Positions 13,527 through 19,353 of a stretch of 44,014 nt of DNA are shown here, in pieces. This DNA is from Candidatus Sigynarchaeum calidifontis (GTDB lineage: Archaea; Asgardarchaeota; Lokiarchaeia; Sigyniarchaeales; Sigyniarchaeaceae), in contig JAUQYZ020000257.1 of NCBI GenBank assembly GCA_030587475.2, positions 1-44,014 on the forward strand. Direction: 5' to 3'. The number at the start of each line of letters is the position of its first letter. The stretch's first letter is position 1. A model generated the notes under the pieces. The model was not told the origin of the DNA. It searched no databases and saw only the letters and a list, made by a program, of their open reading frames with translations. The position numbers were made by a program, and so were the translations under genes.

Positions 13527-14510
13527 ATGGAAATTCGATCTAGTCTTGCGACGACGGGGAAACTCGGCTCGCTTTGGAAGTTACTTTTCTCGCCCGAACG
13601 TCCTGGCGTGGCGGCTATTAGTCCGGGAATCTCGTTCGGGTTATGGTGGAAAACGCGATCGCGCGATGTGCAAGAGCGGGATCTTTTCGAGGGGGCGGTA
13701 GCCGGGGGGTTCGATGCACCTTGCTTGGCTTTTGCATTCGGCACTGGGTACCAGATGGCCTTGCGGCGGCTCGTGCCTGGCTTGCCCCTAGATCTCGTCG
13801 CGTGCATCGCCGCCACCGAGCAAGGGGGTGCCCATCCTCGCGCCATCCAGTCGACTATCCGGTCAATCGATGCATCGAGCGGCGGTGGTAATCTCATCCT
13901 AACGGGTCGCAAGAAATGGATCACGCTGGCGGCCGAGGCATGGTTCTTCATCATCGCCGCGTCCGCGGGCACGGCGGTTGATGGGCGGAACCAGATCCGG
14001 ATGGTCAAGGTGCCCAGGGACGCGACAGGGTTGTTGGTAATGCCGATGAAGAATGTTCCCTTCTTGCCCGAAATCTCCCACGGGGAGGTTATCTTGGAGA
14101 GCGTTCGTATAAAATCCGATGCAATTCTCCCTGGAGATGGTTATGCCGATTACCTGCGCCCCTTCCGTACCGTGGAGGACATATTCGTTGGTGCAAGTCT
14201 TCTGGGATTCATTTTCCGCGCTGCCCGCGAGCGCGGGTGGTCACGGGCAATTCTCGAGCTCCTCGCGTGCCAGATAGCGGGATTGCACGCGATCGCGAGC
14301 GATGACCTGACCGCTCCCGAGACGCATGTCGCATTGGGGGGATTTCTCGCCCAACAGCGTCTTGTGCTGGAGCAGGTCGACAAGCTTTGGCAAGCCGCCG
14401 ATCCTGCATCGAGGGATGCATGGAACCGGGACAAGCTGGTCCTAGAGATTGCGGGCAAGGCGCGGGCCGCGCGCCTCGACAGCGCATGGAAGCGACTGGG
14501 ATTGGTTTAG
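13527..14510 (+). CDS. Acyl-CoA dehydrogenase-like flavoprotein (short type)
   Basis: AATEQGGAHP, LTGRKKWITLA, GDGYADYLRPFRTVED. Start uncertain (TTG 13503 or ATG 13527). Confidence 0.7.
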   Translation: MEIRSSLATTGKLGSLWKLLFSPERPGVAAISPGISFGLWWKTRSRDVQERDLFEGAVAGGFDAPCLAFAFGTGYQMALRRLVPGLPLDLVACIAATEQGGAHPRAIQSTIRSIDASSGGGNLILTGRKKWITLAAEAWFFIIAASAGTAVDGRNQIRMVKVPRDATGLLVMPMKNVPFLPEISHGEVILESVRIKSDAILPGDGYADYLRPFRTVEDIFVGASLLGFIFRAARERGWSRAILELLACQIAGLHAIASDDLTAPETHVALGGFLAQQRLVLEQVDKLWQAADPASRDAWNRDKLVLEIAGKARAARLDSAWKRLGLV

Positions 14511-16498
14511 CTGGTGATCCGCAAGAAGGGCGGCACGATGCGCCGGAACTCAGCATCGTCCTTGTTCTTCGTGTATATCAAGGCGCGGATGAGTTTCTCC
14601 TCGAACAATTCGCCGGTCACCTGGCGGCTCTTGATGCTCGCCCCCTTCGCCAATTTCAAGGTATACGATTCGGGTGGTCCGGCCAGCTCGACTTTTCTCG
14701 GTATCACGAACCCAACGAGACCCAGCGTCGATGAATATGCCACCACGATCGACTTGAACTCGCCCTGGTTTTCGATACTGATGAGCTCGAGCTCTCCCTT
14801 GAGATCGTCGTTCACCTTCGTCATGGGGGTCCAGTCGTTGTAGACGTGAGGGAACGGCTCGTACATGAGACTGTTGAACTGGGCGAGTTGCATGACTTGC
14901 TCGTTATATTGGTCGATTTTGGTCTTTTCCGTGATGTCGAACGACTGGTCGATCAGGCTATCCAGGTGCATCCCCCCCTTCTCAATCTCGTTCATGCGTA
15001 CCCCCGCGATGATATAGGACTTTTTCATACGCTCGATCAAGGAGCGATTCTTGTGCACTTGGCCCGAGACGATCGCGGCCTCGAGAGCCTCGTCGTAGAG
15101 AAAAACAGAATATTGCGGTTTACCGAAGATCAAGAAGTAATCGGCCATTTCAGAGAACGCACTGGCCGCTGCATCGGGATTTTTCATGGACAGGCTTTGC
15201 ACCATCTTGATGAAGTCCTGGACTTCCTCAACTCGCTCGACCTCGTACGATGCGATGGCTTTGGCAAGTAAGCACTTGATCTGCATCTCCACGTCCTTTA
15301 CTTTCTCTGCAAGATACCGGGCGTACTCGAAGTGCTCGATGGCCTTGATGTAAAAGTCGGAGATATCGGCGAAGTTGAAAAAAAAGAGCATCGCCTTCAT
15401 GTACACGGCATTGAGAACGGCTCGATCTTGGTGGCTCTGCGACCCCCAATAGGCGGTTTCCGTGAGGTAGGTGAACGCGTTGAGCAAGTCGCCGTGTAGC
15501 AAGTAGACATAAGCCTTGAAGAAGGTGACCTTGTATATCTGCAACGCAGTGAGCACGTAGAGGAACGGGTAGGCGTCTTTGAAGTCGAACTTGGCACGGA
15601 TGATGTCCTCGATCAAATCGCTGTCCAGCTGCTTCACGGCGTTTAATGCGGAAGGTAAATCCTCGTCGAGGATGTGTTTTCGCATCTCGTCGAGCTTGGC
15701 CACGTGTGCCTTAAGGTTATCGAGGTATTCCTTGTACGGCTCGATTGAGCTCGCAGTTTTTTTATCCAGTGCCAGAGTACCGGACACGTAGACATCGGCG
15801 ACGCGGAGCTTGGCCATCGAGGTATCGTCGAGTTCGCCAGACGTGATGTAGCCGGTCTTGGACTTGATGACGTCCATGGTCGCTGTTGCACCCGGTTCGG
15901 TCCCGCCTTCGCTCGCGTTTACCAGAGCTGCGGTGCGGTCTATTAACCACGACAGTTTCTTGGCTGCCGGGTAAATATCCTTGCGGGACAAGATGTACTG
16001 GATGGAATAATCGGTGAGTTTCTTCTCCATGGACTTGTAATAGCGCTTTAAAACAGCATCGTTCGTGAGCGTCGACAGCTTAAGCATAAAAGCGCCAGGG
16101 GTGAGGATCTTGATGTCCTTGTTTAATTTCTGGGCATTCTCGACCAGCTTGAAATCATCGGTGACGAGCCACGTTTCCTCCGTCTTTGAGAAGCTATTCG
16201 CGAGGTATAACAGCGACAAGTCATTGTCTTGCGCGGGATTACGATCGTTGAGGGCTTTCTTGATGCCATCGATGTCTGCTTGCGTGACCTTATCGACCGT
16301 CACGACGTAATTGAAATCTTTCTTGGCATCACCCTTGAGAAATGGCATCTCGGCGATAATCTGCCCCGAAACGTGGTACTTGATGCTTTCACTTGCGTTC
16401 TCGCTTTTAACCGCGTTGAGCTTGTTTATCCAGAGCTTTTCCGAAAGCTGATTCACCGAGATAAAAAAGTTGGTGTCGATGACGAAGTGTGTTCCCAT
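14507..16498 (-). CDS. PIN-domain ribonuclease fused to TPR-like helical repeats
   Basis: FVIDTNFF, IIAE, QDNDLSL and LVTDDFKL supply the PIN acidic residues. Central TPR-like helices (KAIEHFEYARYLA, YDEALEAA). Confidence 0.8.
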   Translation of the reverse strand: MGTHFVIDTNFFISVNQLSEKLWINKLNAVKSENASESIKYHVSGQIIAEMPFLKGDAKKDFNYVVTVDKVTQADIDGIKKALNDRNPAQDNDLSLLYLANSFSKTEETWLVTDDFKLVENAQKLNKDIKILTPGAFMLKLSTLTNDAVLKRYYKSMEKKLTDYSIQYILSRKDIYPAAKKLSWLIDRTAALVNASEGGTEPGATATMDVIKSKTGYITSGELDDTSMAKLRVADVYVSGTLALDKKTASSIEPYKEYLDNLKAHVAKLDEMRKHILDEDLPSALNAVKQLDSDLIEDIIRAKFDFKDAYPFLYVLTALQIYKVTFFKAYVYLLHGDLLNAFTYLTETAYWGSQSHQDRAVLNAVYMKAMLFFFNFADISDFYIKAIEHFEYARYLAEKVKDVEMQIKCLLAKAIASYEVERVEEVQDFIKMVQSLSMKNPDAAASAFSEMADYFLIFGKPQYSVFLYDEALEAAIVSGQVHKNRSLIERMKKSYIIAGVRMNEIEKGGMHLDSLIDQSFDITEKTKIDQYNEQVMQLAQFNSLMYEPFPHVYNDWTPMTKVNDDLKGELELISIENQGEFKSIVVAYSSTLGLVGFVIPRKVELAGPPESYTLKLAKGASIKSRQVTGELFEEKLIRALIYTKNKDDAEFRRIVPPFLRITS

Positions 16499-16544: not shown

Positions 16545-16626
16545 GAAAAAAAAAGATTAGCTCGCGAGGGCCGGATTGCCGGATATCAGACAGACCCGGA
16601 AAAAAAAAAGGAATTAACCGAAAAAA
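16545..16626 (-). terminator. Oligo-T tracts (archaeal terminator-like)
   Basis: Plus-strand A runs at 16621-16626, 16600-16609 and ~16545-16554 read as U tracts on the minus strand. Confidence 0.45.
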
Positions 16627-16920
16627 GGTGCCATGTTTCCCGGCATTAACACTCTGCTCTCATTGAATGGCCGTTTCGCCATTTTCTTGAGCATGTTCTC
16701 TCATGCCAGGATTACTGGCACCCGGCGGGTGAGAAGCCGTGTTCGAGCATGGGGTTGTCTTGCAATCATCCACGAGTGAGCCACTCGGCTGTCGTGCAAG
16801 GGCCGTGTGCCCGGTGTCCAGCTTCCAATCTCGGATGTGTCCCGCTCCATGCCCTTAGCCTCATCGTTTGGTGCTCGGCAAGGCCTCGAAGCGGGCGCTT
16901 AGCTCGTCAGCGATTCCCGC
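16610..16920 (-). ncRNA. Candidate structured non-coding RNA (~310 nt), family unassigned
   Basis: No ORF of 60 aa or more on the minus strand here. GC-rich block with AT-rich flanks, many nested stems, paired 5'/3' ends, upstream TATA/BRE and a downstream U10 tract. Confidence 0.55.
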
Positions 16921-16940
16921 AATATTAAAGAACGAGTATT

Positions 16941-16955
16941 TACATAAATTCTTTG
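16941..16955 (-). promoter_or_regulatory. Putative archaeal BRE-TATA promoter for the ncRNA candidate
   Basis: Minus strand reads CAAAGAA-TTTATGTA, ending 21 nt before the G at 16920. Confidence 0.5.
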
Positions 16956-18477: not shown

Positions 18478-19140
18478 TTAGCCGTCGAGTTCCTTCTTGA
18501 GTTTTTCGAGCTCTTTTTTGACCTTCTCGCTGCGGGTGGCCTCGTCCTCGACCGACTCGGGCTCATCTTCCAACGGAACCGCTATGTTGCTTGTTGGTGT
18601 CGAGGGCAAGGTTTGGCCATCGAGCATAACTGCCGCCTTGAGCTCCTCGAGTTCTTCCTCGACCGCATCGCTTTCCGCTTCGCTCTCCGGGTTTTCTGAC
18701 ATGACCTCGGCGCTTTCATCCAAGGCTGCTATGGCTTCCTCCGATTCTTCGTTCAATTCCATAATTTGTTCGGGCTGGAGCTCTTCAACGTGCTTCTTGA
18801 GTACGGCAGTCGTGGATTTCATGGTCTGGCCCATGGTCTTGATGGTTTCCGCTGACTCGATGGCATCCGATTGGCGTTCCAATTTTAAAATAAATCCTTG
18901 AAATCTTTCCAAGTTATTAAGAGCACGCTTCCTGCGAATGAGATAAGTCTTAGCCAGGTTTATGTTACCATCAATAACCGCTTTTCTTGCTTTGAGTTGA
19001 AGATCTTGAGCATCTTTCTCGTATTTCTTGATGCCAAGTCTAATCTGGTTGATAGATTGCTTGAGATCGGCCTTACCGGTATCGACACTTGGCTGCTTCT
19101 TTTTCGGAAAGAGCTTCTTCATCTTGATCAATCCGTTCAT
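18478..19140 (-). CDS. ESCRT-III / Snf7-family protein (Vps20/32/60-like)
   Basis: Basic N-terminus KKLFPKKK, helical hairpin ARKAVIDGNINLAKTYLIRRKR...LERQSDAIESA, acidic VEEELEELK, LPSTP and a terminal KKELEKLKKEL helix. Start 19140 or 19122. Confidence 0.88.
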   Translation of the reverse strand: MNGLIKMKKLFPKKKQPSVDTGKADLKQSINQIRLGIKKYEKDAQDLQLKARKAVIDGNINLAKTYLIRRKRALNNLERFQGFILKLERQSDAIESAETIKTMGQTMKSTTAVLKKHVEELQPEQIMELNEESEEAIAALDESAEVMSENPESEAESDAVEEELEELKAAVMLDGQTLPSTPTSNIAVPLEDEPESVEDEATRSEKVKKELEKLKKELDG

Positions 19141-19353
19141 GCTGCTTAATCTAAAAAAAGTTATGGATAAAGGCCATGAATCAAGGTTATCGCAATGTTC
19201 GATAGACGTGTATGCGGCACGCCACGACATGATGATGATCCGAGATAACAATAATCGAAAGTCGCGTCTTGCACTCGATATCCAAAAGCTGCTTTGCTTG
19301 TAAGCACTATCAAATGACATCTATCGTATTGGAAAAAGAACTATGTAAAATTG

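Follow-up and report, generated by a model that had tools for sequence, protein, structure and literature searches.

The sequence analysed here is a 44,014-nucleotide stretch (the window) comprising positions 1 to 44,014 of contig JAUQYZ020000257.1 of the Asgard archaeon Candidatus Sigynarchaeum calidifontis (GCA_030587475.2). A structured RNA element occupies the minus strand between a DUF4434 gene, which lies upstream, and a gene for a 663-residue protein, which lies downstream; both genes are on that strand too (Table 1). An ESCRT-III (Snf7) gene lies two genes upstream of the RNA, and is also found near it in two related genomes, G001 and G002. A TATA-like TTTATGTA begins 30 nt ahead of the first GGG of the window's copy (the query), and 25 of 29 homologues carry a TTT(W)A motif 29-32 nt ahead of theirs, in agreement with a preliminary description of this DNA that had given the element its own promoter. 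At the other end lie two U tracts that probably form an archaeal terminator region; the RNA probably stops at the U6 run rather than at the U10 run favored in that description, giving a length of about 295 nt instead of about 310.

Table 1. Features of the RNA locus and neighboring genes; window coordinates, rRNA positions in E. coli numbering.
Feature	Position	Strand	Details and basis
Snf7 (ESCRT-III) gene	18478-19320	-	
BRE/TATA-like promoter	16941-16955	-	Sequence; TTTATGTA at 16948-16941; offset matched in homologues
Whole guide RNA, three box H/ACA units (probable)	16626-16920	-	Fold, homologues, covariation
Helix P0, 5' strand GCGGG	16916-16920	-	Pairs with CCCGC 16729-16725; RNAalifold; GGG/CCC kept in family f4
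Basal K-turn, bulged strand	16904-16915	-	C-stem AAUC, 3-nt bulge, GA; partner 16835-16827
H/ACA unit 1	16836-16895	-	Lower stem 16895-16891/16845-16841; upper stem 16883-16877/16860-16853
Unit 1 K-loop and ACA	16876/16862; 16838-16836	-	K-loop GA 16876/GA 16862
Unit 1 guides	16889-16884; 16852-16849	-	5' UCGAGG; 3' GCAU; predicted target 23S U2496
H/ACA unit 2 (rod of the preliminary description)	16732-16826	-	Basal helix 16826-16819/16739-16732; lower stem 16813-16808/16749-16744
Unit 2 upper part and ACA	16800-16759; 16742-16740	-	Upper stem 16800-16795/16764-16759; K-turn; apical stem 16787-16773
Unit 2 guides	16806-16801; 16756-16752	-	5' ACGGCC; 3' AACCC; predicted target 23S U2586
H/ACA unit 3	16626-16723	-	Basal helix 16723-16716/16633-16626; lower stem 16710-16703/16646-16639
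Unit 3 upper part and ACA	16682-16667; 16636-16634	-	Upper stem; K-turn (AA/GA variant); apical stem 16682-16667
Unit 3 guides	16702-16697; 16650-16647	-	5' GAGAGA; 3' GUUA; predicted target 23S helix 69 U1915, perhaps U1917
U6 and U10 tracts (probable terminator region)	16600-16626	-	U6 16626-16621, U10 16609-16600; sequence; homologues have U/A tracts at the same place at their ends
663-aa gene	14507-16498	-	PIN-like start (HFVIDTN) by eye

The minus-strand fold has a predicted energy of -122.8 kcal/mol, against -103.0 +/- 4.5 kcal/mol for shuffled sequences, and none of 100 shuffles folded as well (z of -4.39); z scores range from -4.4 to -4.6 for the minus strand and stand at -2.5 for the plus strand. 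The element matches no Rfam family at the gathering score or at E<=10, and a tRNA/tmRNA search found none. By BLAST, copies were found in two of the three other genomes of family f1, the family of the source genome, with 91% and 69% identity. A covariance model, R1, built from the query and two relatives (the copies in the source genome, G000, and in G001 and G002), matches 65 of 141 genomes of the order, nearly always once per genome and mostly at full length, and a model restricted to unit 1 matches 95 of the 141 genomes sampled across the phylum. The record behind G002 (L091) is titled Bathyarchaeota, yet the genome groups with the Asgard family of the window and shows synteny with it. Two matches were set aside as chance: L090, from a euryarchaeal MAG, was a pattern match inside a coding region (R1 E of 0.23), and the other was L004 (G047). 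Searches gave no homologue in G003 (63% complete), and neither guide model matches the three complete, single-contig genomes of family f2 (G021, G031 and G011), though Cbf5 is present in them; in this family the guide may be lost or strongly diverged. A further f2 genome, G009, does have a unit-1 match.

Alignment of 33 homologues supports the fold at the level of individual base pairs. Of the cells assessed for pairing, 83% pair, compared with around 40% for slid controls, and double changes are seen in 51 of 71 pairs; because the homologues are related by descent, the shuffle count of this pairing test is not a p-value. The stems covary, among them those of the rod and its K-turn recognized in the preliminary description (16826-16732), while the pockets and loops, GA pairs and ACA boxes supply the invariant columns. 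Thirteen contigs from four metatranscriptome runs in three studies map to 16653-16909, one of them at 99% identity, and six compensatory changes in these environmental RNAs fall in unit 2 (among them C-G to A-U at 16796/16763 and A-U to C-G at 16823/16735). Elsewhere in a 2-kb stretch there was only one 37-nt metatranscriptome piece; the contigs come from relatives, and the uncovered flanks may partly reflect lower conservation. These observations establish a real and conserved RNA gene. It is probably also expressed, the contigs of relatives lending support rather than proof of a discrete transcript. The earlier view of the element as an unannotated, independently transcribed, K-turn-bearing Asgard non-coding RNA was right.

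The position of the RNA about 125 nt ahead of the 663-residue gene, on the same strand, raises the possibility that it is the partner or leader of this PIN/TPR-like gene and that the two form an RNA-protein system. The two are adjacent in G000, G001 and G002, and the protein, for which a Pfam search gave no significant match, is kept in relatives at 56-88% identity. However, the adjacency is restricted to family f1: at about 40 other homologues of the RNA, none of the proteins tested from the window is encoded nearby, a 68%-identical copy of the gene (L083) has no RNA upstream, and the U tracts stand between the RNA and the gene. We consider this reading barely credible, and we see no functional link between the RNA and its downstream neighbor.

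The conserved architecture is that of three units, each with a lower stem, an internal-loop pocket, an upper stem, tandem G-A pairs forming a K-turn or K-loop, and an ACA box. UGA is invariant in all three units; the AA/GA variant of unit 3 occurs in the query and several homologues. Productive archaeal H/ACA guides follow a rule of 14 nt between the guide and the ACA (PMC2377435; PMC4652768), the range allowed for an ANA box below the top of the pocket being 14-16 nt, and the query has 14 nt in all three units. Across the 33 homologues, counting from the first base of the 3' guide, ACA or AUA lies at 14 nt in 26 cases for unit 1 and in 29 for unit 2, and for unit 3 at 14 nt (5 cases) or 16 nt (20 cases); in G002 the ACA of unit 2 is replaced by GCA. 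Measured against the 10-bp rule for the stem leading to the GA pairs (PMC4652768), unit 1 has 8+2 in most homologues but 7 bp and a bulge in the query, and in units 2 and 3 the two sides differ by one or two bases. Further elements accompany the units. Helix P0 pairs the 5' end with the linker between units 2 and 3 and so encloses units 1 and 2; a fourth, basal K-turn closes unit 1 from below, its bulge bases variable and its stems covarying; and basal helices enclose the ACA boxes of units 2 and 3 within internal loops. The basal K-turn is present in 27 of the 33 homologues: every one of the 25 from the order, plus two from family f5. A shorter, two-unit guide in which unit 1 or unit 2 is missing appears to occur in some Asgard lineages (L130, L132, L135, L136).

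This architecture revises much of the secondary structure first proposed for the element. Every motif quoted in the preliminary description is present where it was placed, and the lower stem of its hairpin A survives within unit 1; the UUCG/UGGA extension of that hairpin is instead the guide pocket. The proposed pairing of the 5' and 3' ends was not confirmed as the conserved fold: in homologues the 5' bases pair with 16729-16725 and form the K-turn with 16835-16827, G001 lacks the 3' AUUCC segment and the register is not kept, and pairing with 16621-16610 would compete with P0 and the basal K-turn. The bases assigned to two local hairpins, UGCCAG/CUGGCA and UGCCG/UGGCA, build two long-range helices closing hairpin 3. 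One of the four K-turns had been noticed, and the three ACA boxes and their pockets had been missed. A hammerhead-like reading of CUGACGA...GAAAC was discarded on inspection by eye, as CUGA is not kept in G001 and G002.

Two better-known RNAs were weighed as identities for the element, and its earlier separation from both stands. Archaeal SRP RNA (RF01857) was rejected since the SRP54 motif of helix 8 is absent from the query and the SRP RNA of the source genome lies elsewhere, at G000:C173:6613-6919 (L005:1501-1807), where it scores 80.8 bits against the Rfam cut-off of 96.5. That SRP RNA and unit 2 of the query have a 12-base word in common, probably by chance. The case for a highly diverged RNase P RNA starts from its apparent absence from family f1, where RF00373 finds no match in any of the four genomes (G000-G003, 63-89% complete), nor does a profile made from the RNase P RNAs of 16 relatives in G000, while Pop5 is present; the similar length and the K-turn rod would also fit. 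However, full-length homologues of the element co-occur with canonical RNase P RNA on other contigs of many genomes (for example G014, G050 and G035-type f4 genomes), the query has neither CR-I nor CR-V, which form the P4 pseudoknot, and no nhmmer match to the 16-relative profile, and its pockets and ACA boxes are accounted for by H/ACA. The co-occurrence refutes this identity, to which we leave a negligible probability. Family f1 may possess a very diverged RNase P RNA of its own.

Taken together, fold, homologues and pocket sequences make it very probable that the locus is an independent gene encoding an archaeal box H/ACA guide RNA of three units. This RNA would be the orthologue, in Asgard archaea, of HgcG/Pab40/Pf7/Afu4 and is a predicted pseudouridylation guide for 23S rRNA. 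The RNA is best filed as a diverged Asgard structural variant of HgcG/Pab40 and not as a new RNA class, so that of the earlier wording, novel or highly diverged, the second term applies and the first does not. The query has no match to the corresponding Rfam model, RF00064 (gathering threshold 77 bits), even at E<=10, and RF00064 matches 14 Asgard genomes below its threshold, at best with 52 bits. R1 in turn matches RF00064-positive Asgard loci (L125, L127, L128) at 61-66 bits, with E of about 1e-19. Because the query itself is unmatched by RF00064, its membership of that family is transitive and anatomical; its failure to reach the threshold is a limit of model coverage and not a biological feature.

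The anatomical likeness is extensive. Like HgcG, Pab40, Pf7, Pho40 and Afu4, the RNA has three units with ACA at 14 nt, and their targets follow the order 2496 - 2586 - helix 69. Unit 1 shares with HgcG/Pab40 the pocket CGAGG/GC(G/A)A, an upper stem that has 8 bp in most homologues, and a K-loop, unit 2 the 3' guide AACCC and unit 3 the 3' guide GUGUUA; these pocket strands recur in the Rfam HgcG consensus (CGAGG/GCGA, AACCC, GUGUUA). In contrast to that consensus, only the RNA described here has the fourth, basal K-turn, basal helices closing around the ACA boxes, and the helix from the 5' end to the unit 2-3 linker. The 5' guide of unit 3 also differs, being GAGAGA here and GGGUUA in HgcG; GAGAGA predicts the U1915/U1917 mode.

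To predict targets, the pockets were scored on the complete 23S rRNA of another family in the order and the G002 16S rRNA, 960 uridines in all, the rRNA of the source genome being unassembled and 23S rRNA of family f1 missing; targets are numbered as in E. coli (rrlB). Each of the three pockets ranks one site first among the 960 uridines. Unit 1 would pair as UUGC-UU-CCUCGA at U2496 in helix 89, unit 2 as GGGUU-UA-GACCGU at U2586 at the base of helix 93, and unit 3 as UAAC-UAUAA-CUCUC at U1915 in the loop of helix 69, where five target bases are left unpaired. Shuffled pockets equal these scores in 13/200, 14/200 and 2-19/200 cases for units 1, 2 and 3 (per-pocket p of 0.01-0.1). Each rank is modest alone, but all three fall on known pseudouridine sites, and the 23S rRNAs of the order keep the target sequences. 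The pockets of the query have small flaws, with a U-U in the 3' guide of unit 1 and a C-A mismatch in the 5' guide of unit 2. Two other pairings were rejected: unit 3 with U1921, which scored 17 against 20-22 for U1915, and unit 2 with GGGGUUG-UA-GGGCCGUG in 23S domain I, a sequence not found in about 30 LSU loci of the order (family-f1 23S missing). In several 23S genes of the order (L055, L069, L070, L072, L075) the sequence diverges abruptly just past helix 69 or the U2586 region, as would fit introns or insertions in the rRNA beside the guided sites.

These sites correspond to those of characterized guides. Pab40, Pf7 and Afu4 have three motifs, of which motif 1 modifies P. abyssi 2588 and motif 3 modifies 2016 in helix 69, with motif 2 of Pf7 and Afu4 predicted to act at P. 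abyssi 2678 (PMC2377435); in P. abyssi itself, motif 2 now acts at a different site (1932). The spacing of P. abyssi 2549, 2588 and 2603 matches that of yeast 2826, 2865 and 2880, and yeast 2826 is E. coli 2457; an offset of 92 therefore applies, and P. abyssi 2588 corresponds to E. coli 2496 and 2678 to 2586. The H. volcanii RNA sR-h45 is the guide for 2605 and for 1940/1942, where UNUN stays unpaired (PMC7075261). Its SL1, acting on U2605 (E. coli 2586), and SL2, acting on U1940/U1942 (1915/1917) with four target bases unpaired, resemble our predictions for units 2 and 3; unlike the Asgard RNA, sR-h45 has only two units, lacks a U2496 unit, and has a 56-nt linker with a possible pseudoknot in place of the closing helices. 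In yeast, snR46 and snR191 guide the equivalent sites, 25S 2865 and 2258/2260 (PMC5699541). These are two-hairpin eukaryotic snoRNAs from separate genes, with an H box and no K-turn, and are compared here by their sites. As these sites are already common to Pyrococcus and Haloferax, they point to no special link between Asgard archaea and eukaryotes.

By analogy with established H/ACA biochemistry, L7Ae would bind the K-turn or K-loop of each unit, and Cbf5 would bind the ACA box and lower stem, joined by Nop10 and Gar1. The two strands of each pocket would pair with 23S rRNA on either side of one uridine, which Cbf5 would convert to pseudouridine: U2496 for unit 1, U2586 for unit 2, and U1915, possibly also U1917, for unit 3. 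Genes for Cbf5, Nop10 and L7Ae are present above cut-off, and Gar1 gave a weak match below it (E of 6e-5). An RNA of H/ACA descent might instead now serve mainly as a scaffold or chaperone for 23S rRNA in 50S assembly, with at least one unit catalytically idle. With the additional basal K-turn and closing helices, the three units could be packed into a single particle, and the imperfect pockets of the query and the GCA in G002 would fit such a role. However, nearly all homologues strictly conserve the ACA boxes and their 14-nt spacing, which is what selection for catalysis would produce, and we regard this shift of role as very improbable. Somewhat less remote, though still unlikely, is a reading with several copies of Cbf5 in one particle: in Loki-type and Odin-type lineages the guide may have gained the fourth L7Ae site and the ACA-closing helices, folding the three units into one multi-Cbf5 particle, holding together helix 69 and two segments of the peptidyl-transferase center, that would act as a 50S assembly scaffold with cooperation between units as in eukaryotic two-hairpin snoRNPs.

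A search of one literature library found no publication on Asgard H/ACA guides. The function and sites of this RNA are already known from Pyrococcus and Haloferax, which makes its presence here a modest surprise, and what is structurally new is limited to the fourth K-turn and the placing of ACA boxes within internal loops. It is some extra folding elements that hide the RNA from Rfam. The HgcG/Pab40 guide is nevertheless widespread in Asgard archaea, as the reach of the unit-1 model indicates, and it yields testable predictions of pseudouridines in Asgard ribosomes at U2496, U2586 and U1915/1917.
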